Shown here: piece after piece, positions 5,013 to 64,000 of the stretch
Layout: every line of letters begins with the position of its first letter
Numbering within the stretch: position 1 is the first letter of the stretch
Origin: an uncultured Spirochaetota bacterium
Lineage (GTDB): Bacteria > Spirochaetota > B62-G9 > DRHN01
Reading direction: 5' to 3'
Assembly: GCA_964583615.1 (NCBI GenBank)
Contig: CAZOWM010000003.1
Location: forward strand, 30,934 to 94,933
DNA length: 64,000 bases
Notes under the pieces: model-generated
What the model saw: the letters and a program-made list of their open reading frames with translations, nothing else
Told to the model about the DNA's origin: nothing
Database searches by the model: none
Position numbers and translations under genes: made by a program

Positions 5013-6767
5013 TTATATCCCCCGTTCGCCCAGTAATATTTTCAGCTGCTTGATATCATGTATGATTTTCTGACGATCATAGTCTTGAAAACGAGAGGGA
5101 ACCATCTCTCGTGAAGTACACTCCATAACTGCGACGAGATTCTGGAGCTCTATCTCGTGCGGGTAGGTCGGCGGCACGAAATCTTCGATGGTTTGCTCGA
5201 GATCGGATTCATTGATGATGATGTGGTTGTTCATCGTGGCGAGAAATTTTGCACGGATCAGGATCGATTCCAGGTCTGCACCGGAAAAATCAAAATTGCT
5301 TCGCTGCAACATACTGACGATATCGATTTTCTGAACTTTCATGCTGAGCTTTTTTACAAGAGTGTTGAACAAGAGCTGTTTTTCTTCGAGTGTTTCGGGG
5401 TAAAACAGTGCGAGGTGCTCCTCGGCCCTCCCCTGTCGTTTGAGGTCAATGGGGATGAGGTCAGGCCTGCACGTGATGAGAAACCAGATGATCTTTCCCC
5501 TGTATTCCGTGTTTCCCATAAAAGACGCAATCTGGGCGAATATCCTGTTGCTCGTGCCGGAATCACCTTCCTGGTTCCTGTGTCCGAGGAATGCATCCGC
5601 CTCATCGATCATCACCCCTACCGGTGCCATTGCCTTGAGTATATTGAGGATTTTCTCAAGATTCGATTCCGTGACTCCCTGCCACTTGCTTCTGAAGTTT
5701 TGAAATTTCACGATTGGAATCCCGATCTCTCCTGCAAAGGCGGTAACCATAAATGATTTTCCAGTTCCCACGGGCCCTGAAATCAGGTATCCCATTGGCA
5801 GAACATCGAGCCTTCCCTGTTTTATCGCCCGAGCTGCACTCTTAAACCGTTTCTTTACAAAATCATGACCTGAGACCATTGAGAGGTCGTATTCTGTCTC
5901 GATGAATTCCAGAAGCCCGATTGCCTCAGCCTCTATGATCTCCTTTTTCTTTTCCTTGAGATAATGAAGGTCTATCTCCCTGTTTTCCTGAAACGACTCT
6001 GCGGCGAGTTGGTGAATGTTCACAAGATTCAGCCCGCTTGTGACCCGCCCCATCATCTCTGCCGAAAGCCCACGCGAAACGATAAGCTCATCCTTTTTAT
6101 GCAGATATTTGAAAAAACTCTCTCTCACCCGCTCGTCCGGAATAGGGATATTGACTTTCACGGTGCTCGGCGACCTGATGATCCGCGGGCTTAGATCTGC
6201 AAGGTTTTCTGTGAGGAGTATGATGGAAATGTCGTTTTCATTGAATATTGGATCTGTTGCCCACCGGTTGAGGGTGACGAGACAGTATCGGTCCTCATCG
6301 GTATAGTGCGAAATGTCAGTACTCGGAACAATCGTCTCTGCATAGTCAACGATCAAAACAATTCTCAGCTTTCGTCTGATGTTTTTGTAACAGTATTTCT
6401 CGAGGTAGTGAAATGCTTCCGAGGGGTCCTTGGAAAGAAAATCATCAGAACCCTCATTCCCGACGATGGATTTCATCTCTGCGAGATATTCCTGCTTCAT
6501 CTCAGGCTTGCAGAAGGTAATTCCGGAGGACCTGTCGTAATAAATGATGATGTCCCTGTTTCCGAAAAGTATGTCGGAAATATAACTCTGTATCTTTACA
6601 AAGATGAACTCCTCCTCATGCATCTTATGAGGAAGGTAATCTCGTATGTTTCCGTATACCACGTAAAGGTTTGCCGTCTTCGAGCAGTACTTGTAGGAAA
6701 GCTCCTGTGCCCAGGAGGGAAGAATCTTGATAAAAGGGAGGTGCTTCAGAATAAGCTGTTCAGCCAC
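5013..6767 (-). CDS. AAA+ ATPase with uncharacterized ~300-aa N-terminal domain
   Basis: C-terminal half has Walker A GPVGTGKS, Walker B VMIDEADAF and a classic-clade AAA second region of homology. The N-terminal ~300 aa match no family I can name. Confidence 0.8.
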   Translation of the reverse strand: MAEQLILKHLPFIKILPSWAQELSYKYCSKTANLYVVYGNIRDYLPHKMHEEEFIFVKIQSYISDILFGNRDIIIYYDRSSGITFCKPEMKQEYLAEMKSIVGNEGSDDFLSKDPSEAFHYLEKYCYKNIRRKLRIVLIVDYAETIVPSTDISHYTDEDRYCLVTLNRWATDPIFNENDISIILLTENLADLSPRIIRSPSTVKVNIPIPDERVRESFFKYLHKKDELIVSRGLSAEMMGRVTSGLNLVNIHQLAAESFQENREIDLHYLKEKKKEIIEAEAIGLLEFIETEYDLSMVSGHDFVKKRFKSAARAIKQGRLDVLPMGYLISGPVGTGKSFMVTAFAGEIGIPIVKFQNFRSKWQGVTESNLEKILNILKAMAPVGVMIDEADAFLGHRNQEGDSGTSNRIFAQIASFMGNTEYRGKIIWFLITCRPDLIPIDLKRQGRAEEHLALFYPETLEEKQLLFNTLVKKLSMKVQKIDIVSMLQRSNFDFSGADLESILIRAKFLATMNNHIIINESDLEQTIEDFVPPTYPHEIELQNLVAVMECTSREMVPSRFQDYDRQKIIHDIKQLKILLGERGI

Positions 6768-18345: not shown

Positions 18346-21300
18346 TCATTCAGTAAAACGCCCTTCTTCAGGAAACCTGCTTATTATGCGCGCATCATCA
18401 TGGAGCTGAACCCTGTCGCCGATACGCGGTCTCTCTGAGGCCGTTTTTTTCTCCTTCTCCTCACGCTGACACGCGATAACGCCGATGGGTGTGCCCTCCC
18501 GGGCGTATCTCCTGTCAACATACGCCATGCCGACCTGGACACCGTCTGTTCCAAGGGCACAGCTGGTCACCATGCCAATTATTTTCTGCCCTCTCTTGGC
18601 TACGACAATATCGTCCGTGCGTGCGATTCTCACGCCCGGCCTGCTCATCCTGAAACGTACGATCTCCATTTTCATCGAATTCATATTTCTCATCAGTGCG
18701 TTTCTTCCGATGAAAAAGGGTTTGTGAAGCTTTACATATGATCCGAACCCGGCCTCAACCGGTGAAATGCCGAGCTCTCCTGCAAGCTCATGCCCGTACA
18801 GGGGAAGACCCGCCTCGATTCTCAGAGAATCACGCGCTCCAAGACCGATCGGTTTTACACCGAACCGTGCCCCTTGGTCCAAAACCGCATTCCAGAACCG
18901 GACCGCCGCATCAGGATGAAGAAGGAGCTCAAAACCTGTGTCCTCTCCGGTATATCCGGTGCGGCTTACATACATCCTTATTCCCGCAATTTCCGCCTCT
19001 ATAAACTGTGTCTTTTGCACCCTTTCGAGCTTTTTGCTGCACCCGGCTGAACCTGCGAGCGCTTTTAACACGAGAAGCGAATTTGGTCCCTGAAGAGCGA
19101 TATTCACAAGACAGTCAACTCCCCATGCCCTGTTTTTCAGATTACGAATCTCAACCCCGCCGGGTGGACGAAGTGTGGGATTGTTCCTGCCTGCCGGTAC
19201 GTCGCCGGATTTCACCGCTTTCATCCATTCGAGATCCCGGTCACTGTTGACCGCATTGACGATGATGATATATCGCTCATTTCCCACCCGGTACACCATG
19301 ATATCGTCGATAACTCCTCCGTCAGGATCGAGAAGATAACTGTACTGGGACTCCCAATTTGTTATCCACGGCACATAGTTTGTTGTAACGATATCCAGGA
19401 AACTCTCCGCATACTCGCCCCTGACTTCGATAATTCCCATATGGGAGATGTCGAAAATACCGCATGCCTCCCGAACTGTCCTGTGCTCTTCGACGATTCC
19501 TTCATATTTTACCGGCATGAGCCACCCCGCAAACTCAACGAGGCTCTTCGTCAGTTTCACATGCTCTGCATAGAGACAGCTCTTTTTGACAGGCTTCTGG
19601 CCCTCTCCGAACACAAACTCCTTCTCCGCTCCGTCCCGGGAAGAGGCAATCATGCTCTGTGCAACGAAATACGGTTTCGACATGTCGATGAACTGTGGTG
19701 CGCGCGCAGCAAGATCACGGACATCTTCTCCCCTGCCGAACGCTGAAAAGGCGGTTTCTTCTATACCCAACGCTTTCACGGAGCGTGCGATTCTCTCCCT
19801 GTCACCTGCGGAGAGCTCGTGAAAGTCATAGATCTGTGCCGGGCCCTCAACCTTTTTGAAAATATCTTCAGAATCGAATTCCACATAGCCGTCCGCAACT
19901 CCCCGAAGCCACTCTCTCAAATCCTCTCCATCTTCGGGTCTGCACACCACGCAGTACTCGTCAGCCGACTCACGAAACACGTAAGTGAAGGCAAGCAGCT
20001 TTCCTCCCCTGTCAAAAAAAAACGAGTAACACCCTTCCCCCTTTGCTCGCCTCCCTACTGAATTGGTGGTGACCTGCTCGATGAACCGATGCACCCGTTC
20101 ACCCTTCAGCAAAAGAACCCCGTGAGTGTTTTCCGCCGAGAAAGGCCTGACCGGTGTAAAAACTGTATAGTGCGGATACCCTGTTCCCAGAGATGCCCTC
20201 TCGGAGCTCAGCGACCCCGCCAGGTCGGCAACTCTCCGTCTGGCTTCTCTCAGTACACCGTAGTCGACCTTTCCTCTCGGGAGGTCGCCGGTGAGGCCGA
20301 GATAGGTAAAGGGACGTATGTTTTTGAGCACGAATGCAATAATACCCGCCAGTTTTTCGATCCCCTGTTTCGTGATGCCTCTCTGTGTAATCCATGGAGT
20401 ACCGAGCCTGATTCCGCTTGCTTCGGCGGTCATCGTATCTCCGGGAATCGTATTCTTGTTGGCCACGATTCCGCACAGGTCGAGCATCCGCACACCGATT
20501 TCCCCTTTCAGCGGAAACCCGCTTTCCGTCTTGATCTTTCCGAGATCAAGAAGCAGGAGATGGGTATCCGTTCCGCCGTACGCGAGCGTCATCCCCTCGT
20601 TTTCAAGGGCACGCGCAAGATATGCGGCGTTTCTGACGATTGCCTTCTGGGCCCTTTTGAACTCCTCGCTCTGAGCGATTCTGAATGCAACCGCCATTGC
20701 TGCAAACTTGTTCACATGAGGCCCCCCCTGCTCCCCCGGAAACACGGACTGGTCGATCATCCGGCCGTACTCTTCGTTTGCCGTCATTATAATGGCCCCG
20801 CGCGGCCCGAAGAGAGTCTTGTGCGTGGTACAGGTAACCACATCTGCATAGTCGATCGGGTTTGGGTACACACCGCCGACGATCAGGCCGGCGGGATGCG
20901 AGATATCTGCAAAGAGAACGGCGTCCACCGCATCCGCGATCTGTCTGAATTTCTCCCAGTCGGGCGCCCAGGGATAGGAGGTATAACCTGCAATGATCAT
21001 CTTTGGGCGGTGCGTCTCTGCCAGATCCATGATGTCATCGTAATTGAGACGTCCCGTTGCGGCATCCACTTCATAGGAAACGATCGTGTAGTTTTTTCCC
21101 GATCTGTTGAACTCACTGCCGTGAGTGAGATGGCCGCCGTGCATGAGACTCAATCCCATGACAACATCCCCTGGATGCACAAAGGTATCGTACACAGAAT
21201 TGTTCGCGGCAGCTCCCGAGAGAGGCTGCACATTTACGTGTATGCAATTCGCAGGAGTTCTTTCCGTGGCAAAGAGTTCAGCAGCCCTCCTTCCTGCAAG

Positions 21301-21702
21301 GGATTCCACAAAGTTTGCGTAGTCGCATCCCTTGTAGAACCTGCGGTCGGAATATCTTCGCAAGCGGGCGAGCTGAAAGTCAATATCGAGTAAACCGTTT
21401 TCATCTTCGCCGGTCATTTTTGCAGGGGGATACCCCTCTGCATAAATATTGTTGAAAACCGATCCAAGCGCTTCAAGAACAGGAGCGGGGCAGATGCTCT
21501 CTGACGGAATCATCACGATCTTTCGGGTTTGCCGCTCCTGCTCGAAATCGATAAGTTTTTTTACCTCCGGATCAATGTCTTCAAGCGCTTTCCTGAGATA
21601 ATAATCGATGAAAGTTTCTGTGCTCACGTTTTTTCCCCATCCGATAGATTGGAAAATGAATACGCAGGGATTGTACTTCACGCTATCCGTGTTTATTCGC
21701 AA
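18346..21702 (-). CDS. glyA/gcvT: fusion protein: serine hydroxymethyltransferase (N-terminal ~470 aa), partial GcvT-like folate-binding module, complete aminomethyltransferase GcvT (C-terminal ~400 aa)
   Basis: Single 1118-aa ORF. The N-terminal part carries SHMT motifs (VLEALGS..YAEGYP, TTHKTLFGPRGAI with the PLP lysine). The middle has GVLLLKGERVHRFIEQVTTNSV, which is GcvT-like. The C-terminal part is a complete GcvT (GIFDISHMG...GARDSLRIEAGLPLYGHEL). Confidence 0.8.
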   Translation of the reverse strand: MRINTDSVKYNPCVFIFQSIGWGKNVSTETFIDYYLRKALEDIDPEVKKLIDFEQERQTRKIVMIPSESICPAPVLEALGSVFNNIYAEGYPPAKMTGEDENGLLDIDFQLARLRRYSDRRFYKGCDYANFVESLAGRRAAELFATERTPANCIHVNVQPLSGAAANNSVYDTFVHPGDVVMGLSLMHGGHLTHGSEFNRSGKNYTIVSYEVDAATGRLNYDDIMDLAETHRPKMIIAGYTSYPWAPDWEKFRQIADAVDAVLFADISHPAGLIVGGVYPNPIDYADVVTCTTHKTLFGPRGAIIMTANEEYGRMIDQSVFPGEQGGPHVNKFAAMAVAFRIAQSEEFKRAQKAIVRNAAYLARALENEGMTLAYGGTDTHLLLLDLGKIKTESGFPLKGEIGVRMLDLCGIVANKNTIPGDTMTAEASGIRLGTPWITQRGITKQGIEKLAGIIAFVLKNIRPFTYLGLTGDLPRGKVDYGVLREARRRVADLAGSLSSERASLGTGYPHYTVFTPVRPFSAENTHGVLLLKGERVHRFIEQVTTNSVGRRAKGEGCYSFFFDRGGKLLAFTYVFRESADEYCVVCRPEDGEDLREWLRGVADGYVEFDSEDIFKKVEGPAQIYDFHELSAGDRERIARSVKALGIEETAFSAFGRGEDVRDLAARAPQFIDMSKPYFVAQSMIASSRDGAEKEFVFGEGQKPVKKSCLYAEHVKLTKSLVEFAGWLMPVKYEGIVEEHRTVREACGIFDISHMGIIEVRGEYAESFLDIVTTNYVPWITNWESQYSYLLDPDGGVIDDIMVYRVGNERYIIIVNAVNSDRDLEWMKAVKSGDVPAGRNNPTLRPPGGVEIRNLKNRAWGVDCLVNIALQGPNSLLVLKALAGSAGCSKKLERVQKTQFIEAEIAGIRMYVSRTGYTGEDTGFELLLHPDAAVRFWNAVLDQGARFGVKPIGLGARDSLRIEAGLPLYGHELAGELGISPVEAGFGSYVKLHKPFFIGRNALMRNMNSMKMEIVRFRMSRPGVRIARTDDIVVAKRGQKIIGMVTSCALGTDGVQVGMAYVDRRYAREGTPIGVIACQREEKEKKTASERPRIGDRVQLHDDARIISRFPEEGRFTE

Positions 21703-51392: not shown

Positions 51393-52355
51393 GTGGAAAA
51401 AACGATTGAAGTGAAACACCTGAGAAAATGGTTTACGACCCGAAGCTCACGAATCAGTGCACGAGAGTCAGTGCGTGCAGTCGACGACGTAAGCTTTTCC
51501 ATCTACACACGCGAGGTCCTCGGGCTCGTCGGCGAGTCGGGGTGCGGAAAAACGACCTGCGGAAAAGTAATCCTGAAAATCATGGACCCGACAGACGGAC
51601 AGATATTCTTTCACGGACAGGAGATAACGCATCTCCCGAGAAAGGAAATGAACAGGTTCAGAAACCGTATGATGATCATCTATCAGGATCCTTACGGATC
51701 GCTCGATCCACGGATGACCATAAAGAACGCGATCGCCGAGCCCATGGAGGTGCACAGGACCGTCTCGAGAAAGGAAAAAGAAGAAAAAGTTGTTGAGATT
51801 ATGGAAAAAGTCGGCCTTACGCCTGATCAGAGAAACAGATATCCCCACGAATTCAGCGGAGGTCAGAGACAGCGCATCGGCATTGCCCGCGCACTCGCAA
51901 CAAATCCGGATTTTATCATTGCGGACGAAGCGGTGTCCGCCCTTGATGTGTCCATACAGGCGCAGATCATCAACCTCCTTCAGGATCTTCAGCAGGAGTT
52001 CGGCATCACGCTCCTGTTCATTTCCCATGATCTGAGCGTGGTAAAGCATATTAGCGACAGGGTTGCCGTCATGTACCTCGGGAAGATCGTTGAAATTGCA
52101 TTGAAAACCGACCTCTTTGAGCATCCCAAACATCCGTACACGCAGGCTTTGCTCTCCGCCATCCCTGTTCCGGACCCGAAGCTCAGAAAAAAGGGGAAAA
52201 TTCTTATGGGAGATGTTCCCAGCCCCATCAACCCGCCCCCGGGCTGCAGGTTCCATCCGCGCTGTCCCCACCGAATGGAGATCTGCGACAAGAAGCAGCC
52301 TCCTTTGAAAGACCTCGGAAACAGACACAGTGCGGCCTGTTACCTGTATGAGTAA
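51393..52355 (+). CDS. ABC transporter ATP-binding protein (DppF/OppF type)
   Basis: GTG start after a GAGGAG RBS. Walker A GESGCGKTT, signature FSGGQRQR. Confidence 0.8.
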   Translation: MEKTIEVKHLRKWFTTRSSRISARESVRAVDDVSFSIYTREVLGLVGESGCGKTTCGKVILKIMDPTDGQIFFHGQEITHLPRKEMNRFRNRMMIIYQDPYGSLDPRMTIKNAIAEPMEVHRTVSRKEKEEKVVEIMEKVGLTPDQRNRYPHEFSGGQRQRIGIARALATNPDFIIADEAVSALDVSIQAQIINLLQDLQQEFGITLLFISHDLSVVKHISDRVAVMYLGKIVEIALKTDLFEHPKHPYTQALLSAIPVPDPKLRKKGKILMGDVPSPINPPPGCRFHPRCPHRMEICDKKQPPLKDLGNRHSAACYLYE

Positions 52356-52386
52356 ATACTTTAAAAAATACTGTACATGCTGGTTT

Positions 52387-53577
52387 TTAACGCGCGGCTC
52401 CGCGATGAGAAAGACTTTTCAGCACCACGAGGATCATGACACCGATAGCAAGTGAAAGCGCAGAGCCAAAAAAGGGAAGCTTCCATGTGGAAGCAACATC
52501 GTGGAGATACCCTGAAAGGGGCACCCCGCATACCTGACCCATACCGTGAATCAGCGTTGCAGCTCCGAAAACCGTGCCCATCTCACGTTCCGTGACCTCG
52601 TCACTGATCAGAGAGGCGGTCACCGTTATTAGTCCAAAAAACACAAATCCGAAAAGGAAGGTGGAAAGATAGAACACCCACGCCATATTCCATGGAATGA
52701 TAACGATAACCGCGCCCGTTAAAATAGACGTTGCGCTCATCGCAACAACGATTTTATCTATTTTGTCTGAAAACCACCCCCAAAACAATCCGGAGTACAG
52801 TGAATTGAATCCGAACAGTGACCACATGATTCCGGCGGTTTTTTCGGAAAATCCGATCTCCGCAATCGCATAGACTCCGAAATAGGTCACGTAAATGATA
52901 TAGGAAAACCCGAGAATAAAGTAGTACAAGACCGTAAGGAAAAGCTTTTTGCGGGAAGCGAATACCCATGATATAGATTTCTTCTTTGTTTTTGCTTTTT
53001 GCCGGCTGATTTTCTTTTTTCCGTTTTTCATGAGCCGAAAGGTCACAATAAGCACAACAGTGTTGATGAGAGCCAGTACAAACCAGCTCACGCGGTATCC
53101 CAGACCGGGTGACACTGTAAGCAGCGGCGGAACGATGTACCCGCTGAGGACGATCCCCGCACCTGCACCTCCCATTACAATCCCGAAAGCGCTTCCTTTC
53201 TTCGAAACGGATTGATTGACAATTGCAATGAGGGGGATGTAGCTCCCTGCCGCACCGGCACCGAGCCCCAGAGTCGCGGCGAGAAGAACAGGATAGCTCG
53301 AAAAATACCCCAGACAAAAGAGCGATGCAGACACGAGCGCAATCGAATACTTCAGTGTCCTCTCTTCCCCTATCGCTTCCGAAATTCTTCCGCTCATGAA
53401 GGAATTGACCAGGTAACCCGCCACGATGCCCGTGCCGAGAAAACCCATCATGGTTGCGGACAGACCGAGGGCTTTCATCATATCAGGAAGAATGAGCGTA
53501 AAGACGAATCTGCCGAAAGCCATGGTTGTGAATTGAACAAGCCATCCGGCAAAAATCAGAGGGAGGTTTTTTCTCAT
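52387..53577 (-). CDS. MFS transporter
   Basis: 12-TM MFS. Start MRKNLPLIFAGW preferred (the longer ORF would overlap the upstream gene by 94 nt). Confidence 0.7.
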   Translation of the reverse strand: MRKNLPLIFAGWLVQFTTMAFGRFVFTLILPDMMKALGLSATMMGFLGTGIVAGYLVNSFMSGRISEAIGEERTLKYSIALVSASLFCLGYFSSYPVLLAATLGLGAGAAGSYIPLIAIVNQSVSKKGSAFGIVMGGAGAGIVLSGYIVPPLLTVSPGLGYRVSWFVLALINTVVLIVTFRLMKNGKKKISRQKAKTKKKSISWVFASRKKLFLTVLYYFILGFSYIIYVTYFGVYAIAEIGFSEKTAGIMWSLFGFNSLYSGLFWGWFSDKIDKIVVAMSATSILTGAVIVIIPWNMAWVFYLSTFLFGFVFFGLITVTASLISDEVTEREMGTVFGAATLIHGMGQVCGVPLSGYLHDVASTWKLPFFGSALSLAIGVMILVVLKSLSHRGAAR

Positions 53578-53597
53578 AGGGAAAGATATCGTTCGAG

Positions 53598-55289
53598 CTA
53601 TACGACCTTTATACCCTTTATCTTGAAGATTGCGAGAAAGAGAACGTGCACCACAACAACAATCGCCACCACAATCGTTGACATCGCACATGCGCTTTCT
53701 ATGTATCCGTCATCGATGAGATGTATAATGGTAATCGAGGCAAGCTGCGTTTTCGGAGACACAAGGAATATGACCGCGCTGATCGTGACCATGCTCCTTT
53801 CGAAAAAGAACAGAATATTGTTCCAGAAACTGACTCTGCTCAACGGGAAGATCACCTGAAAGAACGATTTCGGGAGATCCGCCCCGAGAGATGTCGAGGC
53901 TTCGTCAATCGATTTGTCGATATTCTTCATGTTTGTCATTGTGGAAAGCATACCAAGGGTGAAGTTTGCCACAATAATGTTGAGAATCACGATGGAAGCC
54001 TTGTAATAGAGCCAGTTCACACGAACGAACGCAAGGATGTAACCGAGCCCGAGAACGAGCCCCGGTATTGCGGCTGGAAGAACGGTAATGAGATAGAGCA
54101 GCTGGTTCCCTTTCGGTTTTCTTTTCTCTACGATGTACCCTGCAAAAAGCGTGAGCCATGCGCCGAAGAAGGCGACAATTAAGGAAATCCATAAACTGGT
54201 CCACACCACAGATATGGAACGCCCCCTGTGTGAAAAATTATAATGCCGCGTACTGAATGCGGTGAGCCATCTGAGGATCTGTTTTGATTGTCCGGCGCGT
54301 CCCCCCCATACATCAACGATGGATGTCCACAGTATTGCCCAGAAAATAATGATAATGGCACCGACAATGACGATTGAAACTGCGGAAAAAATCAGCTTTT
54401 TTGACCTGCTCGACGGCCTGATAAACGGCCGTGCGGCACCGCTTATCAGTGAGTAGTTCCTCTTTGTGAAATAGTTGTTGAGGACGAATGCAAGCACTGC
54501 AGGCACGAGAAGGATGACGCTTATCGTCGCACCCAGATCGAAACGCTGCATTCCTTCGACCTGCGTGTATATCTCCGTTGCGAGCACGTTGTAATCCCCC
54601 CCGATAACGATGGGGTTTCCGAAATCGGTGATGGTCAGATTAAACGCGAGTGCGGCGGCAGAAAAAATTCCGTACCGCGCGGATGGTATGGTCACCTTCC
54701 AGAATACCTTGAGCGCTCCTGCGCCGAGAGACTCGGCCGCTTCATTCAGGCGTGCATCAACCGCGGAAAGAGTGGTAATCAGTATGAGGAGCGCATAGGG
54801 AAAGCAATAAAAAAGTTCTGATATGATGATACCGGTCGGACCATATATATCCCACTTCCCCCCAAGCCAGTTCGTCACAAGCCCGTTTCTTCCGAAAAGA
54901 GAGATCAGTGCGAGCGCCTGCACAACCGAAGGTGCCATAAGGGGAAGCGAGGACACCGCCTTGTAAAACGATTTCCCCCGAATCGTGGTCCTGGTCATTG
55001 CGTAGGCCATGAAAAACGCCATGATCGTGGTTATAAAAGTTGTCACTCCTGCAACGTACAAACTGTTGTAAAGAGACCTTCTGATCCGGGCTTTCCCGAA
55101 GTACTCTATGTAGTTCTGGAATGTAAACCCTCCCTCTGTCACAAAGCTCGATTTCAGTATCTGCGCGAGAGGCAAAATGAGGAAAATCGCAAAAAAAATT
55201 GCAAATATACCTACAATGATATACGCCACAGCCTGGTCAGGGAGAACCGTTTTTACGGGTTTTATCACAATTGCTTGATTTTCTTCCAT
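53598..55289 (-). CDS. ABC transporter permease with two fused permease domains (Fe3+/thiamine/spermidine-type)
   Basis: 563 aa, 12 TM, two EAA-like loops; FbpB/ThiP-type architecture. Confidence 0.8.
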   Translation of the reverse strand: MEENQAIVIKPVKTVLPDQAVAYIIVGIFAIFFAIFLILPLAQILKSSFVTEGGFTFQNYIEYFGKARIRRSLYNSLYVAGVTTFITTIMAFFMAYAMTRTTIRGKSFYKAVSSLPLMAPSVVQALALISLFGRNGLVTNWLGGKWDIYGPTGIIISELFYCFPYALLILITTLSAVDARLNEAAESLGAGALKVFWKVTIPSARYGIFSAAALAFNLTITDFGNPIVIGGDYNVLATEIYTQVEGMQRFDLGATISVILLVPAVLAFVLNNYFTKRNYSLISGAARPFIRPSSRSKKLIFSAVSIVIVGAIIIIFWAILWTSIVDVWGGRAGQSKQILRWLTAFSTRHYNFSHRGRSISVVWTSLWISLIVAFFGAWLTLFAGYIVEKRKPKGNQLLYLITVLPAAIPGLVLGLGYILAFVRVNWLYYKASIVILNIIVANFTLGMLSTMTNMKNIDKSIDEASTSLGADLPKSFFQVIFPLSRVSFWNNILFFFERSMVTISAVIFLVSPKTQLASITIIHLIDDGYIESACAMSTIVVAIVVVVHVLFLAIFKIKGIKVV

Positions 55290-55303
55290 TTCGGATATCT
55301 CCC

Positions 55304-56392
55304 TTAAGAAAAAATCAGAAAATCTTCCGGTGGAAAGTACAATTGTACCGTTTCTCCAGTTTTGAACATCGCTTTCTCAAAATCCTTCTCGGTGATGTCA
55401 ACAATCACATACTCATTGAACATGCTGATAATAGAGCGCACAATGACACCGAGGAAGGTCACGACATCAATGACTCCTTCCTTGACATTGGTCTTTTTCA
55501 GGCCAGAGGGAATTTTGGCCAAATTCTTGTAGAGGTGTATTTTCTCCGGTCGTATGGAGATCGATACCGCTTTCCGTTGTTGTGCTGAAAAATCGCGCGT
55601 ATCCCGGGAAAGTGCAAACTGGAGCCCCGTACTTTTATCCAGAAACATGTCCGCCTCGAGCTCCCCTTCGAAGAAGTTCGATGTTCCCACAAAATCCGCA
55701 ACGAATTTCGAATTTGGATTCTTGTAAATTTCTATCGGTTTATCCACCTGTTCTATATACCCATGATTCATGACGATCACCCTATCGGATATGGATAGGG
55801 CCTCTTCCTGGTCATGGGTCACATACACCATGGTGATCCCCAGATCCGTCTGCACGCGCTTTATCTCCGCCCTCAGGTTTACCCGTATCTTGGCATCGAG
55901 CGCGGACAGCGGCTCATCAAGAAGGAGTATCTGGGGAAAAGTGGCCAGAGATCGTATCAGCGCGACCCTCTGCTGCTGCCCGCCTGAAAGCTCTGGAGGG
56001 TATTTAAACTTCTGGTCTTCAAGGCCAACGAGATGAAGAAGCTCGTCAACCCGCCGGGACATCTGTGACTTCTCGACCTTTCTCATCTTTAACCCGAACC
56101 CGACATTTTCCTTAACCGTCATATGGGGAAACAGGGCGTACGATTGAAACACAATCCCAAAGTTTCTCCTCTGAGGGATGATGTCATTGATTACATCTCC
56201 ATCGTAGATAATTTTTCCGCTTGTGGGAATTTCAAACCCCGCAATCATTCTCAATGTCGTGGTCTTGCCGCATCCCGACGGGCCCAGGAAACAGACGAAT
56301 TCCCCCTCCATTATCTCGATGCTCATGTCGCGAACCGCAACAATCTTTTCAAATTTCTTCGTGAGCTTTTCAAGAATGAGATCCTTCCCCAT
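55304..56392 (-). CDS. ABC transporter ATP-binding protein (FbpC/PotA type) with C-terminal TOBE-like domain
   Basis: Walker A GPSGCGKTT, signature LSGGQQQR, Walker B LLLDEPLSALD. Confidence 0.85.
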   Translation of the reverse strand: MGKDLILEKLTKKFEKIVAVRDMSIEIMEGEFVCFLGPSGCGKTTTLRMIAGFEIPTSGKIIYDGDVINDIIPQRRNFGIVFQSYALFPHMTVKENVGFGLKMRKVEKSQMSRRVDELLHLVGLEDQKFKYPPELSGGQQQRVALIRSLATFPQILLLDEPLSALDAKIRVNLRAEIKRVQTDLGITMVYVTHDQEEALSISDRVIVMNHGYIEQVDKPIEIYKNPNSKFVADFVGTSNFFEGELEADMFLDKSTGLQFALSRDTRDFSAQQRKAVSISIRPEKIHLYKNLAKIPSGLKKTNVKEGVIDVVTFLGVIVRSIISMFNEYVIVDITEKDFEKAMFKTGETVQLYFPPEDFLIFS

Positions 56393-56464
56393 GAAAACCT
56401 CCGGGCATATGAAAGTTATTGCAGGCGCAGGACGCTCTCACCCTGCGCCGCATTTTTCAACCAA

Positions 56465-57514
56465 TTATCTGAGAAACAGGTCCTGCCAGTTGATGAGAAT
56501 ATCACCTCTGTTCGCCGCCTGCCACTCAAAGTCCATGGGAATGAGCTTGACATCTTCCAGACTGGGAAGATCGGGTCGCACTGGGGGTATCCCAGGTTTG
56601 GTAACTCCCACCTTCCACTTCGCGTACAGCCTCATGGCATCGTCGGAAATCGCCCAGTCAAGAAACTTTTTCGCATTGTTTGGATGCTTCGCCCCTTTCA
56701 TGAGCGCATTTGCCTCCAGCTCATAGGCGCTTCCCTCTGCGGGAAGCACCATTTCAACAGGCTTCCCCTCCTTTTTGAGGTTTGCAATAACGAATGCAAA
56801 AGACGCACCGATTACATACTCTCCCGCCGCAGCATACTTTGCAGGCCGCGAGCCGCTCTTGATGTACTGACCCATGTTCTTGTCGAGCTCCCCGAGAAAT
56901 TTCCACCCCTCGTTTTCCGCAATCGTCTTGTTCTTGTAGTCGGGGTCCCAGGTTTCGAGGACTCCTGCAACCATTAAAAATCCCGTGCCCGAGCTTGCGG
57001 GGTTCGGCATGATAAGGTGCCCCTTGTACACCGGGTTGGTCAGGTCCTGCCAGGAAGTGGGCATGGGCAGGTTGTACTCATTTAATTTCTCCGTGTTCAC
57101 ACAGAACGCCGCAAGATAGAGGTCAATGGCGTACCAGTAATCATTCGGGTCCTTGAACCGGGCCGGTATCTTGTCTCCGTCTGCAGGTACATAGGGTTCG
57201 AAAAACCCCCTGTCAGTAAAATCCATCAGATAAGTGACCGCCCACCCATACACCACGTCTGCCTGCGGATTCGCTTTTTCAGCGAGAAGCTTCGCACCGA
57301 CGACCCCGGTTGAGAAACGGGTCCAGCTGATGTCCAGTCCTGTCGCGACCTCTGCCGCACTGATGTACTCTTCCGTCTCATCCGTTTCCAAAGAGGTGTA
57401 CAGTATGAGCTCATCACCCTCATCGACCGCCGGCTCTTTTGCTTTTTCCCCTTCGGCAAAAAGCAAAAGAGGTACACACACCATCAACGCAACAAACAGA
57501 AAAACCTTTTTCAT
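56465..57514 (-). CDS. ABC transporter substrate-binding protein, family 1 (iron(III)/thiamine-like)
   Basis: Signal peptide MKKVFLFVALMVCVPLLLFA; SBP_bac_1/FbpA-like fold. Confidence 0.75.
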   Translation of the reverse strand: MKKVFLFVALMVCVPLLLFAEGEKAKEPAVDEGDELILYTSLETDETEEYISAAEVATGLDISWTRFSTGVVGAKLLAEKANPQADVVYGWAVTYLMDFTDRGFFEPYVPADGDKIPARFKDPNDYWYAIDLYLAAFCVNTEKLNEYNLPMPTSWQDLTNPVYKGHLIMPNPASSGTGFLMVAGVLETWDPDYKNKTIAENEGWKFLGELDKNMGQYIKSGSRPAKYAAAGEYVIGASFAFVIANLKKEGKPVEMVLPAEGSAYELEANALMKGAKHPNNAKKFLDWAISDDAMRLYAKWKVGVTKPGIPPVRPDLPSLEDVKLIPMDFEWQAANRGDILINWQDLFLR

Positions 57515-57741
57515 CTTTCTCCTCCTTAGTCTGATATATAGATGTCATACATAATAACTTATATTAATTATTTTACCTCCTTTTTTCTTAGTGTAAAAAT
57601 TCATTTTGTATTTGTTACTTTTATGTTAATTTGATCGTACTACGAAGCGGTGCGTTTGTGCAATATTTTATTTGTATAAACCTTGTATTTTATGAGAATA
57701 TTTTTGTAAGACAGCACAATACACAGTGAGAGGATTATATC
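57515..57741. promoter_or_regulatory. AT-rich divergent intergenic region between the iron-type ABC operon (minus) and phoU-like/pit (plus)
   Basis: 227 bp of strongly AT-biased sequence, flanked by two divergent operon starts. Promoters and metalloregulator/Pho operator sites are expected here, but none could be called confidently. Confidence 0.3.
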
Positions 57742-58395
57742 ATGGGTTTTTTTATCCATAAAAAAGAAAAACATATCGTCGAACTGATCAAACGTCACGT
57801 TGACACTGTAGTGGAAACCGTGTACACGGTGACTGAAGCATTGGGGCTGCTTCTTGAAGGGAAGAAAGATGAATCCGTAGAATATACGAAAAAGGTTCAC
57901 AAAAAGGAGCACGAAGCTGACATCATACAGCGGGAGATCGATATGGAAATGTTTGGAGGCGCATTCATGCCCTCGATACGGGAAAATCTCTTCATTACGG
58001 TCGACATCGTAGACAAAGTAGCGAACAGAGCGGAGAAGCTCGGTGATTTCATCACCCTCATCAGCCCCGATGTGCCGGCGGAGATAGTGAAAGATGTAAG
58101 AAAAATGGGCGAACTGACGTGTAAATGCGCAGAAAAGATGCGAGATGCAGTATACAGTCTCTTTGACAGCATGGAGGCGGTCCACGAGGATACCATTGAG
58201 ATCGAGCGCTACGAGACAAGGATCGACAAAGTTGCGTGGAAAATTCTTGACACCATATTTAAAAAACTTGATATCGAAAAATTTTCTCACCGAATGATGC
58301 TGAGGGAGATGATCATCCACCTGAGTTCCATCAGTAACAAGATAGAAGACGCGTCCGACAGGATCGACATTATCGCGCTGCGGCTGAAATCGTGA
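57742..58395 (+). CDS. PhoU-like phosphate transport regulator (DUF47 family)
   Basis: 217-aa helical protein immediately upstream of pit. DUF47 proteins are the usual partner of PHO4-type Pit transporters. Confidence 0.75.
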   Translation: MGFFIHKKEKHIVELIKRHVDTVVETVYTVTEALGLLLEGKKDESVEYTKKVHKKEHEADIIQREIDMEMFGGAFMPSIRENLFITVDIVDKVANRAEKLGDFITLISPDVPAEIVKDVRKMGELTCKCAEKMRDAVYSLFDSMEAVHEDTIEIERYETRIDKVAWKILDTIFKKLDIEKFSHRMMLREMIIHLSSISNKIEDASDRIDIIALRLKS

Positions 58396-58428
58396 GGGTA
58401 TATACCTCTCATACAGGCAAGGAATTCT

Positions 58429-59354
58429 ATGTTTCGTCTCATTTCCGGAATATACCTCGGCTGGGGGCGAATGATGCTGCAAACGTGTTCGGTACGGGTG
58501 TTGCTTCAGGTGTGGTGAAGTACAGAATAGCGATCATTTTGACCGCTGTGTTTGTTGTCTCGGGCGCGCTCGTGCAGGGTTCTCGCGGCCTGCATACGAT
58601 CGGCGCTCTCGCAGAAATGGACTTAAACACCGCATTCATCGCCTCTCTTGCCGCCGCGCTCACGGTAAACATCCTCACCGTTCTTGCGATTCCGGTTTCC
58701 ACTTCCCAGGCGATTGTCGGCGCGATCTGCGCTGTCGGCATCAGGGGAAGCGGTGTGCAGGTATCTGTACTCATCAAAGTGTTGGCAAGCTGGGTCATAA
58801 GCCCGATTGCTGCAGCATTCATCTCGTACGCGCTTTACCGGATACTCGGATCACTGCTCGAGGGTCGAATATCAAATGTGCGTGTATGGTCGATCTTCAT
58901 GAGAATCGGTTTCTACTGCGTTGGAATCTACGGCGCATACGCGCTCGGTGCGAATAATGTTGCGAATACGACCGGTGTGTTCCTCAGTGCGGGGATGCTC
59001 ACTCCTGCGGCAGCAGCGCTCCTGGGAGGCGTTTCCATCGGACTCGGCGTTTTAACCTACAGCAAAAAGGTGATGTACACCGTGGGGAAAAGAATTACCC
59101 GTATGAGCGAGTTCGCGGCACTGGTCGCCGTGCTCGGGCAGGATATAACTGTTCACATCTTTTCATGGGTCGGCGTGCCTGTTTCGACCTCGCAGGCAAT
59201 CGTCGGCGCCGTTATCGGGGTGGGGTATGTAAAATCGAGCAGGGAGATAAACTTTGATATTGTTGGAAAAATTTTTCTCGGGTGGATATTCACTCCTACC
59301 GCATCATTTTTCATTGCCTATTTCGCCCTCCTCCTGTTTTCACGCTTCTTCTGA
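58429..59354 (+). pseudogene. pit: inorganic phosphate transporter Pit (PHO4 family) with apparent 5' frameshift in a G5 tract
   Basis: From GANDAANVFGTGVASG onward the track ORF (58392..59354) is a complete PHO4 protein. The hydrophobic helix-1 start MFRLISGIYLGW is encoded from ATG 58429 (AAGGA RBS) in the +1 frame and meets the main frame only if the G5 at 58463-58467 were G6. Confidence 0.5.
58463..58467 (+). repeat. poly-G (G5) tract at putative pit frameshift site
   Basis: cggctgggggcgaat, read directly from the sequence; G6 would restore MFRLISGIYLGWGANDAAN. Confidence 0.4.
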
Positions 59355-59386
59355 AGCCTTTCTCAAAATACACCTACCCACAGGTA

Positions 59387-60307
59387 ATGAGATGGATTAA
59401 ATCAAATATATGTATTCTCGCATATCCTTATATACGCAGGCGTGCTGAAAGGGGAAAACCACTGGTTGTCGGGGTTCCCAAAGAAAGTTTTCCCGGAGAA
59501 ACGAGGGTTGCCCTTGTGCCGTCCGGGGTGCAGACTCTCGTCTCAAAGGGTATTGATGTGGTTCTTGAGACAGGGTGCGGTGTGGCTGCGGGATACACCG
59601 ACGAAGCATACAGAGAAAAGGGCGCAGAGTTCGTGAAGGTTCGCCGTGACCTGTTTCACGCGTCAAGTTTGGTTCTTCAGGTGCGGGGAGCGGGGGCAAA
59701 TCCGCAGGGCGCGTGTTTCGATCTCGATCTGATGCGGAAAAACCAGATACTCATAGGACTGCTCGATCCTCTCCATGCTCCTCACTGCCTTCAAACCTTC
59801 GTGGAAATGGATCTCGGAAACGAGGACACGGAAGCGGACGGCGGGTACGCCCGTGCGATGGATGAGGAGTTTTACAGAAAACAGCGCGAACTGCTTTCCC
59901 GCGAGATGGGGGACGCGGATGTGGTCATCACCACTGCTGCAGTGCCTGGTAAAAAGGCACCTGTGCTCATCACAGAGGAAATGGTGAAGCGAATGCAGAA
60001 CGGTGCGGTGATCGTGGACCTGGCCGCAGAACACGGGGGGAACTGTGAGCTCACGAAGCCTGTAAAAGAAATTGTGTTCGAAGGGGTGAAGATTGTCGGA
60101 CCGGTAAACCTTCCCGCCACTGTTCCCTATCATGCAAGCCAGCTGTACTCAAAGAACATCACCACATTTCTGACTTCTCTGATCAGGGACGGTAAGATCG
60201 ATCTTGACAGTGACGATGAAATCATGAAAGCCACGCTCGTCTCCAGAGACGGAGTCATTGTCCACGAAGATTTAAAAAAGAGTGTTGGGAAAAAAAATCA
60301 TGGATAA
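59387..60307 (+). pseudogene. pntA: NAD(P) transhydrogenase alpha subunit part 1 (PntAA) lacking the central NAD(H)-binding Rossmann core
   Basis: N-terminal (VGVPKESFPGETRVA...) and C-terminal (DGGYARAMDEEF...DVVITTAAVPGKKAPVLITEEMV...VDLAAEHGGNCE) blocks align to PntAA dI. About 95 aa including the GxGxxG segment are absent between ...CLQTF and VEMD... (around nt 59800). Confidence 0.6.
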
Positions 60308-60608
60308 CTTTACTCTTATACTTATGATATTCGTACTCGCCCTATTCGTCGGTTTCGAGATCATTACCAAGGTACCTCCCATACTTCACACTCCCCTCAT
60401 GTCCGGCTCCAACGTAATATCTGGGATCACGCTTGTGGGCGCAATTCTTTCAGCGGGCACCCAGAGGACCACCCTGACGATGATTCTCGGGTTCATGGCA
60501 GTGGTGTTTGCAACCGTCAACGCGGTGTGGGCAGTTTCGTTGCCTTTGCAAAGCTTCAGGGCATCATCACAGAGAAATCCGTGCGCTTCTGGGGAGACCA
60601 GTTCGTGA
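60300..60608 (+). pseudogene. pntA: PntAB (transhydrogenase alpha part 2) with the C-terminal ~20 aa replaced by out-of-frame sequence
   Basis: MDNFTLILMIFVLALFVGFEIITKVPPILHTPLMSGSNVISG... is a typical PntAB up to ...ATVNAV, then continues as unrelated WAVSLPLQSFRASSQRNPCASGETSS. Confidence 0.55.
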
Positions 60609-61348
60609 AGTTCTTCTTCCTCTGTGTTTCGGTCCTGCTCGGCGTGCTTCTCACCGTTCCTATCGGGGGAGCGGACATGCCCGTTGTTATCGCGCTGTTG
60701 AACTCCTATTCAGGCCTTACTGCAGCCGGAACCGGATTCGTTCTTTCCAATACGGTGCTCATCGGAGGCATCGGAAAAATAACGGAAATCACCCTTCCGG
60801 ACGACGTTTACGGAGAAAAAGTGAAAAGCACCTCGTCAGAAGAGGTGGCGATGCTTCTCAAGGCGGCCAGAAGAGTCGTATTTATTCCGGGATACGGCAT
60901 GGCGATCGCACGTGCTCACCACGCAGTACACGTGCTCTTTCAGGCACTGATCAATGATGGCATTGAGGTTGAATTCGGAATACATCCGGTTGCGGGACGT
61001 ATGCCGGGTCACATGAATGTGCTGCTCGCTGAGGAGAACATCCCCTATGACAGGCTGAAAGAAATGGATGTCATCAACTCAACCCTCGAGCAGACCGATG
61101 TTGCCATTGTGGTGGGCGCAAACGACGTGGTGAATCCTCTCGCCCGCGAGGATTCAGGAACTCCGATCTCTGGAATGCCGATCATCGAGGCAGACAAAGC
61201 GCATACAGTCGTTGTGATCAAGCGAAGCCTGAGCCACGGTTTTTCTGGAATCCCCAACCCTCTCTTTGCTGCTGAAAACACGCTCATGCTCTTCGGTGAC
61301 GGGCAGAAAATGATTCAAGAGCTCATCGACGCCTACAAGGAAGCATGA
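60527..61348 (+). pseudogene. pntB: PntB (transhydrogenase beta) missing its N-terminal ~140 aa (first transmembrane helices)
   Basis: ORF begins at a GTG inside pntAB with GSFVAFAKL (equivalent to E. coli PntB residue ~140). It then reads IGGADMPVV..., the membrane segment and a complete NADP-binding dIII (GYGMAIARAHH, HPVAGRMPGHMNVLLAE). No upstream in-frame PntB sequence exists. Confidence 0.6.
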
Positions 61349-61617
61349 TCAATGTGATGTTCGGTTACTACGAAGATCCACAACTTACCAAGAAATCATT
61401 CCGTAAAAGCTATTTCATGACAGGAGACAATGGCTCCGGAGATGCATTTTTATTTTTTCAGGTGATGAGGCCGTGTCTGCGAGAAGAATATACACACAGC
61501 AGTGCAGTCTATGAGTCAATGGTAGCGGAATTGATCGGTCGTTTCCCCTCAAAAAAGGTGGAGACGCACCGCTTCATGCTGCACACAGACGGAAAAAGCA
61601 TTGGAACAATCTTTTGA
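61345..61617 (+). pseudogene. remnant of an AMP-dependent synthetase/ligase (acyl-CoA ligase) C-terminal region
   Basis: Begins ...FGYYEDPQLTKKSFRKSYFMTGDNGSGDAFLFF, matching the GYxxxPExTxxxFxDGWFxTGDxGxxDxDGYLF block of adenylate-forming enzymes. Flanking sequence does not continue the family. Confidence 0.35.
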
Positions 61618-62111
61618 TACTCTCTGTAGCTATCACCGAATATCTTTGTGAAATAGTATTTTTCCTGTATCACGACATAAACAACATCCATTGACACAAG
61701 CACTGGGAAAATGAAAAAAAGTTTCCGTGAACCGGTAATAAGCAGCATACCAGCGATAAAAAAAGAAAGCCAGAGTACACCCGGATGGCGTACGAGCGCG
61801 TAGGTTCCCGTGGTGACAAGCACGCCGTCTGTTCCCGCCTCCATATAGGTCTTTTTGAAAGGAATTTCAAAAAAAAGGCTGTACATGAGCAGAAGAAAAA
61901 AAACGGGTGCAAGAATCCAGCCGACAATGTGCGCGAAAAAAGGCAAATGAAAATATTCAGAGGTGAAACACGATATGAAGATAGAAAAACAGATCAGCGC
62001 GTTCCCCGCCACAAATATGGCCTGCTTGAGAAACCTGACTTTTTTCAGGCTCACCTTCTCGAAAAAAAAGAGTATGCAAAAACCGAGCACAGCAAAGACT
62101 ATACAGTACAT
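61509..62111 (-). CDS. isoprenylcysteine carboxyl methyltransferase (ICMT)/phospholipid methyltransferase-family membrane protein
   Basis: 200 aa, 5 TM, and the LVRHPGVLW motif of the ICMT/PEMT family. Confidence 0.6.
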   Translation of the reverse strand: MYCIVFAVLGFCILFFFEKVSLKKVRFLKQAIFVAGNALICFSIFISCFTSEYFHLPFFAHIVGWILAPVFFLLLMYSLFFEIPFKKTYMEAGTDGVLVTTGTYALVRHPGVLWLSFFIAGMLLITGSRKLFFIFPVLVSMDVVYVVIQEKYYFTKIFGDSYREYQKIVPMLFPSVCSMKRCVSTFFEGKRPINSATIDS

Positions 62112-62264
62112 GTGTCCGCCTGTAGTGAGCCTTTTGTCTCCCCTCCCCCATTACACCAGTATACTCCTTTTTTTTATGCTATCCATCGAGACACTGGTAT
62201 TTTTTCAATACACGTTCACCGCCGAGCATCCGCCGGCTGACTCAATTATAGTAAACATCCCTCA

Positions 62265-62726
62265 CTATTCATTATTTCTGCCGCCGCCCGGAACCACCAT
62301 GAGAATGGGGATAGAAGAGTGCACAAGCACTCTGTGAGCAACACTGCCGAAGACCCATTGCTGGAATCCGGACTTTCCGTGCGTGCTCATGGTAATCAGG
62401 TCTACCTTTTCATCCTTGGCGACTTCCAGAATCTTTTCTGCCGGCTGGCCATCAACCACAAGCTTTGTTTCAACAGGTATATCGTCTTTCCTCAGTTCAG
62501 CTGCTACCTTCTCAAGGTATTGCCTCGCATCGATTTCACGTTTTTCCTCAGCCTCACGGACGCGTTCCGCGCCGATAAAATCTTTTACATCCATTATGAG
62601 TGGTTCCAATACCCTCAATAGGATCACTTTCTCGACTGTGCGCCCTTTTGCTATTGTTCTCGCATGCTCGAGTGCACTTTCAGAGAATGTTGAACCATCC
62701 AGAGGTACCAATAATTTTTTATACAT
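62265..62726 (-). CDS. uspA: universal stress protein
   Basis: 153 aa. KKLLVPLDGS...LITMSTHGKSG...GSVAHRVLVHSSIPILMV is the UspA ATP-binding fold. Confidence 0.8.
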   Translation of the reverse strand: MYKKLLVPLDGSTFSESALEHARTIAKGRTVEKVILLRVLEPLIMDVKDFIGAERVREAEEKREIDARQYLEKVAAELRKDDIPVETKLVVDGQPAEKILEVAKDEKVDLITMSTHGKSGFQQWVFGSVAHRVLVHSSIPILMVVPGGGRNNE

Positions 62727-62769
62727 CCTCAGCCTCCCAGCTTCCCGTAAGCTTACATATAAAGAGTAG

Positions 62770-64000
62770 TCATTTCCCGTAGTATAAACTGGGCAACCAC
62801 AGGGCTATTTTCGGAAACATCATGACAACGACCAACCCGATAACCATCACGATCACGAAGGGGACGATCGATCGGTAGATGTCAGACAGCGTAATCTCTT
62901 TGGGAGACATGGCCCGCATAAGAAACAGGTTATAACCGAAGGGAGGCGTCAAATACGCTATCTGACATGTTATCGTGTAGAGAACCCCGTACCAGATCGG
63001 GTCGAAACCCAGCTCGATCACCAGCGGGACATACAGCGGAGCTACAATGATGAGCATGGCCGTATCGTCCAGAAACGTGCCCATCAAAAGGTAGGACAAC
63101 TGCATCATGATGATGATTCCCCACGGACCGAACCCGTACTCGAGAAATAACCCCTTTATCGCATGTACCGCACCCAGACCGTCAAAGATGGCGCCAAAGG
63201 CGAGCGCGGCAAGAATAACCCACATAAACATGCAACTCACGCTCAGCGTATCGCGCAGTACCTCGACCATTCCCTTCCGCGTTAAACGCTTGTTGAAAAC
63301 GGCTGCTAACGTCGTTACTGTCGCACCGACCGCTGAGGCCTCGACCAGACTGGTTATCCCAAGAAAGAACAGGCCCGACATCATGAAAATAATGAACAGC
63401 GGAACTATTCCCGACCTGAGCAGCAGAAGCTTTTTTTTCAATGGGATCCGCCGCTCTTCCTTGCTCAACGCCGGCCCCAAGTGCGGCTGAATCAAGCATC
63501 GACCGAGTATATACAAGATGAACAGGCCGGCCAGCATGAGGCCTGGAAAAACACCTGCGAGCCATAACCGGCCGATCGGCTGCCTGGCTATCATCCCGTA
63601 CAGAACAAGAACGACGCTTGGCGGTATCATGATGCCGAGGGAGCTACCTGCCTGGATCACTCCGGTCAGCATTATCTTGTCGTACTTTCGCTTCAGCATT
63701 TCGGGTAACGCAAGAGTTGCCCCTATTGCCATGCCTGCTACGCTCAACCCGTTCATAGCAGCGATTATGGACATCAGGCCAATAGTTCCAATGGCCAAGC
63801 CGCCGTTGATCGGGCCCATCCATACATGAAACATGGTGTAGAGGTCATCAGCGATCCCCGACTTGGAAAACATATACCCCATATAAATGAACATCGGCAG
63901 TGTGAGGAGCGGATACCAGTTGAGCAGATTGAAGCTTGCATGAAACGCTAACCCTGCGCCGCCCTTCCCCCATAAAATGAGGGCAAATGCACTGGCTACA
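62770..64000 (-). CDS. dctM: TRAP transporter large permease DctM (5' end beyond window edge)
   Basis: The DctM-like sequence continues in frame upstream of the annotated Met to the window end (...ALILWGKGGAGLAFHASFNLLNWYPLLTLPMFIYMGY...), so the gene is truncated by the window. Confidence 0.8.
   Translation of the reverse strand, partial: VASAFALILWGKGGAGLAFHASFNLLNWYPLLTLPMFIYMGYMFSKSGIADDLYTMFHVWMGPINGGLAIGTIGLMSIIAAMNGLSVAGMAIGATLALPEMLKRKYDKIMLTGVIQAGSSLGIMIPPSVVLVLYGMIARQPIGRLWLAGVFPGLMLAGLFILYILGRCLIQPHLGPALSKEERRIPLKKKLLLLRSGIVPLFIIFMMSGLFFLGITSLVEASAVGATVTTLAAVFNKRLTRKGMVEVLRDTLSVSCMFMWVILAALAFGAIFDGLGAVHAIKGLFLEYGFGPWGIIIMMQLSYLLMGTFLDDTAMLIIVAPLYVPLVIELGFDPIWYGVLYTITCQIAYLTPPFGYNLFLMRAMSPKEITLSDIYRSIVPFVIVMVIGLVVVMMFPKIALWLPSLYYGK

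Follow-up and report, generated by a model that had tools for sequence, protein, structure and literature searches.

Probable recent inactivation of the pntAA-pntAB-pntB transhydrogenase operon in an uncultured Spirochaetota bacterium

We analyzed a 64,000-nucleotide stretch of DNA from an uncultured Spirochaetota bacterium (contig CAZOWM010000003.1; hereafter the window) and focus here on positions 59387-61348, where three open reading frames (ORFs) on the same strand are remnants of pntAA, pntAB and pntB, the genes of the proton-translocating transhydrogenase. A first-pass annotation made from the sequence had described this locus as an internally deleted, decaying operon, and Pfam searches together with DNA alignment to relatives recovered each of its elements at the positions it gave. 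The features are listed below; L001, L087, L090, L091 and L098 are contigs of related lineages, L084 comes from another assembly nearly identical to the window, and TM denotes a transmembrane helix.

59387-60307, forward strand: pntAA remnant ORF, 306 aa when counted from an in-frame ATG farther upstream (59387); domain I (dI) proper begins at 59462.
59462-59464, forward strand: CTG at the conserved pntAA start position; ATG in L087, L001, L098 and L091, CTG in the window and L084.
59794-59807, no strand: junction 1, AACCTTCGTGGAAA, a 318-bp (106-codon) in-frame deletion located from overlapping BLAST blocks and protein alignment.
60300-60526, forward strand: pntAB remnant, codons 1-76 (TM2, TM3 and the first part of TM4), then out of frame to a stop at 60608.
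60525-60528, no strand: junction 2, a 463-bp deletion in the window, with a GT/GTGT polymorphism at 60525-60526.
60527-61348, forward strand: pntB remnant ORF, 273 aa, GTG start at junction 2, in a frame different from that of pntAB.
60636-60652, no strand: junction 3, a 72-bp (24-codon) in-frame deletion of PntB residues 173-196, located from overlapping BLAST blocks and protein alignment.
60755-60764, no strand: junction 4, GTGCTCATCG, a 90-bp (30-codon) in-frame deletion of PntB residues 236-265 that removes TM14.
60765-61345, forward strand: linker and complete domain III (dIII, NADP(H)-binding) coding part; Pfam PNTB positions 263-455 of 456; gapless against L087, L001 and L090.

The PntAA remnant matches AlaDh_PNT_N over profile positions 1-107 of 136 and AlaDh_PNT_C over positions 78-214 of 214, leaving a profile gap of N 108-136 plus C 1-77, and on either side of this gap it is ~89% identical in amino acid sequence to the intact 412-aa P0001/L087 protein. 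PntAB had been described as normal up to a point and then unrelated, and this agrees with a PNTB_4TM match to positions 2-70 of 85 followed by the out-of-frame run to the stop at 60608; residues 1-76 of L087 PntAB are 89% identical to the window (tblastn). PntB indeed resumes in another frame at a GTG, that of the 273-aa PNTB ORF starting at 60527, which scores 345 bits against PNTB in two stretches compared to 586 bits in one stretch for the intact L087 protein. The E-values of the window matches are 1e-41, 7e-25, 8e-24 and 9e-103, and the shared parts of the three ORFs are together ~89% identical to their intact orthologues. dIII is intact, as had been proposed: it aligns to relatives without gaps and keeps the motifs GYGMA, HPVAGRMPGHMNVLLAE, GANDVVNP and KRS.

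Every related lineage that we found (L001, L087-L089, L096, L090, L098 and L091) has a full-length three-gene pnt operon, with a pntAA of 412 aa as annotated, a pntAB of 93 aa and a pntB of 462 aa. Nucleotide identity to the window is ~88-89% for L001, L087-L089 and L096 and 81-85% for L090 and L098, and L091 is more distant. The best PntAA homologue, P0001 (412 aa, 89% identity over the best local alignment), is encoded on L001, a contig that carries pit and the three pnt genes at the lengths just given (412, 93 and 462 aa); the matches listed from a contig scan with P0001 were all relatives at 54-61% identity. Searching with the fusion of pntAB and pntB as query gave P0122 and through it contigs L087-L089 (up to 76 kb), where the gene order is that of the window: an iron-type substrate-binding protein (SBP), PhoU_div, PHO4, pntAA, pntAB, pntB, a 36-aa ORF, a PEMT-like gene, Usp and DctMQP. 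L087 aligns with window positions 52037-63999 at ~89% nucleotide identity, so that a syntenic full-length orthologue stands in an identical neighborhood. Within this 12-kb block, ten neighboring gene products align to the L087 proteins over their full length with no gaps, the exception being PHO4/pit. Chance is not an issue for the shortening of pnt: over 9 kb of flanking syntenic genes the products show no gap against those of the relative. Among the best 120 matches listed, PntAA homologues are all 375-443 aa long; the PKMFPMMM motif, universal among homologues, falls in the part that the window has lost. We found no second short pnt architecture among the best 120 homologues listed per search, and the few shorter PntB matches sit on contigs of 1-2 kb. 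The first-pass annotation had suggested an alignment to close relatives, and since all those found carry the full-length operon, the shortened form is not an architecture that they share.

Deletion sizes were taken as the offsets between five collinear blocks in the DNA alignment of the window to L001 and L087. Compared to these contigs the window lacks 318, 463, 72 and 90 bp, or 943 bp in all, which is about one third of the operon. Two deletions had been noticed before and both are real, with the count too low: pntB has two further in-frame deletions (72 and 90 bp) and the pntAA start codon has been lost as well. The first deletion takes PntAA residues 137-242 (numbered on the 412-aa annotation), among them RITRAQSMD (the RQD loop), GAGVAG (the GxGxxG motif) and AYDVR, and in the alignment to the Thermus thermophilus alpha1 structure 4O9U the offset changes from +10 to +106. 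Its site near 59800 and its preserved frame were correctly predicted, and its size, put at about 95 residues, is 106 codons. The second deletion takes PntAB residues 77-93 (the last 17), the stop codon, a 3-nt spacer and PntB residues 1-136; here too the loss stands and the earlier figures (about 20 aa of PntAB and about 140 aa of PntB) are corrected. The third joins TM11 and TM12 as a single hydrophobic segment.

At three of the four junctions there is a short direct repeat that intact relatives already possess. At junction 1, ACCTT(C/T)GTG(A/G)AAA is found at both ends of the deleted segment in L001, each copy encoding T-F-V in the same frame. Junction 3 lies on an imperfect repeat of ~17 nt that encodes (V)L-x-G-V-L at both ends in L001, and junction 4 on a perfect 10-nt direct repeat, again at both ends in L001 and the sole exact 10-mer repeat within 600 bp in the pnt operon of that contig. 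Junction 2 has only minimal microhomology. The three repeat-joined deletions suggest slipped-strand or microhomology-mediated deletion.

The deletions are not an assembly artefact. The same junctions occur in four other assemblies, namely L084 (the same as L092 and L097; JGI Ga0307437), L093 (Logan SRR8556769), L094 (Logan SRR9706179) and L095 (JGI Ga0315544), which represent at least three distinct samples, as SRR8556769 looks like the read set of Ga0307437. The four are 99.9% identical to the window, each has its own single-nucleotide polymorphisms (SNPs) and each carries every junction that it covers: junctions 1 and 2 in all four, junction 3 in three (L092, L093 and L095) and junction 4 in two (L092 and L095), with L095 spanning all four junctions without a gap. 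A degenerate 47-nt pattern placed inside pntAB, which fits the deleted and the intact form alike, retrieved only two window-type and two intact contigs from the JGI metagenome contigs; among the contigs matching it there was no intact contig of the window's species and no lineage intermediate between the window and the 89% relatives. The first-pass annotation had allowed that resequencing might restore the missing segments, and these assemblies restore none. It is true that the window comes from a metagenome-type assembly, on a 107-kb contig in an NCBI record, that three junctions lie on short repeats, where joins might be collapsed or chimeric and hide an intact operon, and that the ends of the L093 and L094 contigs could mark branches of the assembly graph. 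However, repeats of 10-17 nt are far below the k-mer length of assemblers, and the assemblies that agree on the junctions were made by different pipelines (JGI and Logan) and differ by SNPs of their own, so that an error of assembly, binning or sequencing has next to no probability.

Some details of these assemblies are worth recording. L093 ends exactly at junction 4 (window 60764), L094 ends 13 nt past junction 2 (window 60539), and near the 3' end of pit in L093 (window 59272) one T is missing from a run of five. Homopolymer error could account for the T deletion, and assembly-graph branch points arising from strain heterogeneity for the contig ends.

We next consider the translation signals. 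In L087, L001, L098 and L091 the intact pntAA begins with an ATG 6-7 nt after a GGAG-like ribosome-binding site. In the window the pntAA ORF is kept open by the upstream in-frame ATG at 59387, and no ribosome-binding site is evident before it; nor does the sequence upstream of the pntB-remnant GTG (60527) hold a Shine-Dalgarno-like sequence. A promoter consensus scan of the locus gave nothing above the shuffled expectation and a terminator scan nothing interpretable. The pnt genes of the window thus fail as translatable genes on two counts, the change of the start from ATG to CTG and a +2 shift of frame at 60525-60526 that is found in the window and three other assemblies.

What remains can be compared to the known three-polypeptide transhydrogenase (T. 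thermophilus, PDB 4O9U and 4IZH; R. rubrum, PDB 1F8G), which has the gene order of the window (alpha1/alpha2/beta) and the same Pfam families (AlaDh_PNT_N/C, PNTB_4TM and PNTB). The alpha1 chains of these three structures are the best PDB matches of the window PntAA (E about 1e-52), and dIII is complete in the window. We assigned helices to residues from hydropathy and from an alignment to E. coli PntB, and the TM numbering used here is putative. On this numbering the deletions take out all of TM6-9 and TM14, the greater part of TM10, the end of TM4 and half each of TM11 and TM12; seven of the twelve membrane helices are counted as removed or truncated. Domain II (dII), the membrane domain, is left with TM4/10 and TM11/12 as hybrid segments, so that, in contrast to the known enzyme, the window has three of twelve helices whole and two more as hybrids. 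Absent from the window as well are the half of dI.2 that binds NAD(H), the RQD loop and the conserved start codon, and its allele has no continuous beta frame. The proton channel is formed by TM3, 4, 9, 10, 13 and 14 (PMC5742237), and four of these six are lost or cut short (TM9 and TM14 gone, TM4 and TM10 truncated and fused). Since the GxGxxG strand-loop-helix, the acidic ribose ligand and the RQD loop are all among the 106 residues missing from dI, as the protein alignment, the Pfam gap and the 4O9U offset agree, the product would be unable to bind NAD(H) in dI, and because of the damage to the four channel helices it would be unable to conduct protons. With both the NAD(H) site and the proton channel lost, we expect that no transhydrogenase activity remains.

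The frame at junction 2 varies within the deleted lineage. In the window, L093, L094 and L095 the junction reads GCGGTGTGGGC and the frame is shifted (the GTGT form, four assemblies), and in L084 it reads GCGGTGGGC, in which the GT of 60525-60526 is absent and the deletion is one of 465 bp in frame (the GT form, one assembly). In L084 all four deletions are therefore in frame, and gene callers predict a 348-aa fusion of PNTB_4TM and PNTB. Because L093 shares two SNPs with L084, at 60719 and at 62769 (the latter via L086), the two forms probably coexist in one sample. That this site is polymorphic argues against selection for an open frame. We also asked how often in-frame deletions would arise from the spacing of repeats: in the intact operon, 55-60% of the direct repeats of 7-9 nt that lie 60-500 bp apart are in phase, with ~56% as the figure for short repeats in the operon, and the chance of an in-frame outcome from repeat phasing alone is ~0.18 for three deletions of three and ~0.10 for four of four. 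An all-in-frame outcome is thus not surprising and would need no selection, as repeat phasing can explain it; a bias toward multiples of three, both in deletions and in the spacing of microhomologies, has been published for bacterial pseudogenes (PMC6054270).

A second polymorphic site lies nearby. Position 60719, in the pntB remnant, is A (Thr) in the window and in L095, and G (Ala) in L084, in L093 and in every intact relative. The nonsynonymous change to A is derived and segregates within the deleted lineage; combined with the GT/GTGT site it gives three haplotypes.

Single-nucleotide changes over the 628 shared pnt codons were assigned by parsimony to the window, L087 and L098 branches, and the window was compared to the rest by Fisher's test. 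The ratio of nonsynonymous to synonymous changes (N/S) in the pnt remnant is 32/46 = 0.70 on the window branch, 25/81 = 0.31 on the L087 branch and 59/144 = 0.41 on the L098 branch (odds ratio 1.86, p=0.019). For phoU_div and pit together the corresponding counts are 16/27, 35/52 and 44/110 (p=0.6). An earlier three-branch test with fewer codons and L090 as the third lineage gave p=0.09 for pnt. The excess on the window branch is seen in pnt and not in the flanking genes, which suggests that constraint on pnt has been relaxed on this branch. On a simple mixture estimate, inactivation may have occurred in roughly the last 10-20% of the branch since its split from the nearest intact lineage.

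Based on these data, we propose that the locus is very probably a recently inactivated and non-functional relic of the pntAA-pntAB-pntB operon. Comparison with intact close relatives supports the first-pass annotation in this, its principal claim. The disabling lesions are fixed, in that no assembly of the lineage lacks a junction that it covers; the frameshift at junction 2 is polymorphic, and the CTG start is present in both the window and L084.

Several observations weigh against a dead gene. dIII is perfectly preserved, there is no internal stop codon in the remaining 1.9 kb, and the L084 allele has all its deletions in frame. Neutral sequence is assumed to have an N/S of ~2.5-3, and the value of 0.70 on the window branch is far below this, so that either point mutations have only just started to erode the gene or it remains under some constraint. 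The replacements in dIII that are specific to the window are V to I, R to H (twice), P to S, P to H and G to E, at positions that presumably also vary in E. coli PntB. Lastly, four large deletions in so short a time amount to a high ratio of deletions to substitutions.

The same observations can be read in favor of a function retained or newly acquired. The first-pass annotation had left room for an unusual minimal variant, and such a variant would consist of a truncated dI and a membrane-anchored dIII (the fusion of PntAB with the PntB remnant), serving for instance in the sensing or binding of NADP(H) at the membrane. Besides the intact dIII motifs, the absence of stop codons and an N/S still below neutrality, the L084 fusion fits this picture in its hydropathy: four hydrophobic segments pass the threshold, and if a weaker fifth, TM3, also spans the membrane, dIII could be cytoplasmic. 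Natural fusions of PntAB and PntB likewise join PNTB_4TM to PNTB (P0125, 558 aa; P0143, P0186, P0197 and P0223, 560-581 aa), but these keep all their helices in 558-581 aa, whereas the L084 fusion has 348 aa with 155, 24 and 30 codons missing and, unlike them, is out of frame in most assemblies. The junction 2 frame is broken in four of five assemblies, the window included, and CTG has replaced the canonical pntAA start. The operon has lost its NAD(H) site together with most of the proton channel, and half a Rossmann fold is unlikely to be stable. Since no other short architecture appears among the best 120 homologues listed per search, N/S is significantly above that of the intact lineages, and repeat phasing alone would give an in-frame result in roughly 10-18% of cases, we regard a functional minimal variant as very unlikely. 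In its most specific form, the L084 allele would be a selected, membrane-tethered NADP(H)-binding module with four or five membrane segments, produced as the proton channel was excised piece by piece, and the frameshifted GTGT allele would then be a derived and dying form; to this version we give equally little credence.

A different possibility concerns how, rather than whether, the operon died. After a first hit (the dI deletion or the loss of the start), the orphaned membrane domain may have been harmful through proton leak or misfolding, and deletions in dII would have been favored. The three additional deletions spare dIII and all fall within the membrane domain, four of the six channel helices are lost or broken by them, and there are many large deletions set against a small excess of substitutions; moreover, young bacterial pseudogenes are lost faster than neutrality predicts, as reported by Kuo & Ochman 2010 (PMC2916853). 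Against this, the events number only four, microhomologies may simply be commoner in the membrane domain, whose low-complexity hydrophobic sequence is the richest in repeats, and we found no intermediate lineage by which the events could be ordered. Dismantling driven by selection is improbable, if less so than a retained function.

We favor, then, an account of simple decay. Sister lineages have kept the operon in place, and the window lineage has lost 943 bp in four separate deletions, three of them presumably by slipped-strand or microhomology-mediated joining of repeats that were there beforehand. Transcripts reading through from the phoU_div-pit unit probably still cover the remnant, and the relic would now be whittled away under the usual deletional bias of bacteria. 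This is ordinary gene decay by a well-known mutational route, acting on a well-known enzyme, and not a new kind of enzyme. In the cases of Danneels et al. 2018 (PMC6054270) and Kuo & Ochman 2010 (PMC2916853), short direct repeats flank the deletions of pseudogenes, as they do in the window, and multiples of three are over-represented in both, which is explained by in-phase microhomologies in coding DNA. The cases described there are mostly small indels in host-restricted genomes with many pseudogenes; in contrast, the window deletions are of 72-465 bp, and the surrounding 12 kb has only one other lesion, a 5-bp frameshift in pit.

The practical consequences are for annotation. The 306-aa and 273-aa (or 348-aa) ORFs, where called as transhydrogenase subunits, should be flagged as pseudogene fragments, and metabolic reconstructions should not credit this Spirochaetota-like population with a membrane transhydrogenase. 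The locus is also a clean, small example of two known points, namely that short in-phase direct repeats in coding DNA steer deletions to multiples of three, and that as a result a gene that has only just died may seem conserved and in frame although its active sites are missing. The pnt relic opens no new biological question.

The neighboring pit gene (PHO4, phosphate transporter) carries the one other lesion. A 5-bp deletion at 58458/58459, 10-13 codons past the conserved ATG at 58429, has removed one of the copies of the direct repeat GCTGG(GG) and puts this canonical ATG out of frame, and the ORF is open only from a GTG at 58392 with a replacement N-terminus that is non-hydrophobic. The deletion is present in the window and L093, and L087 and L098 retain the 5 bp. 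Decay may extend to the entire phoU_div-pit-pnt unit. Within this same-strand string pnt comes last, and the next gene, PEMT-like, is convergent, so that, judging from gene order, the decay of pnt would have no polar consequences. For PhoU_div, N/S on the window branch is 8/8, a ratio of small counts.

Downstream of pnt, a 90-aa ORF (61345-61617) overlaps the pntB stop where relatives have the 36-aa ORF. Its identification as a C-terminal fragment of an AMP-ligase is not supported, as the ORF has no Pfam or NCBIfam match. The intergenic stretch from pntB to the PEMT-like gene is ~100 nt shorter in the window (61444-61503) than in L087 (10269-10527) and L001; the downstream sequence of L090 and L098 differs and gives no polarity for this change.

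The placement of the organism as Spirochaetota-like is based on its transketolase, which is 70-71% identical to homologues in metagenome-assembled genomes of Spirochaetota bacteria, and on the presence of a FlgK gene. The sole Rfam match in the window, at 4824-5014 on the forward strand, is a full-length 6S (SsrS) RNA (76.8 bits against a gathering score of 46.4). Lastly, a 1118-aa ORF on the reverse strand (18346-21702) joins serine hydroxymethyltransferase (residues 117-462) and the aminomethyltransferase GcvT (residues 705-1080) in one frame, an unusual fusion of two one-carbon enzymes.

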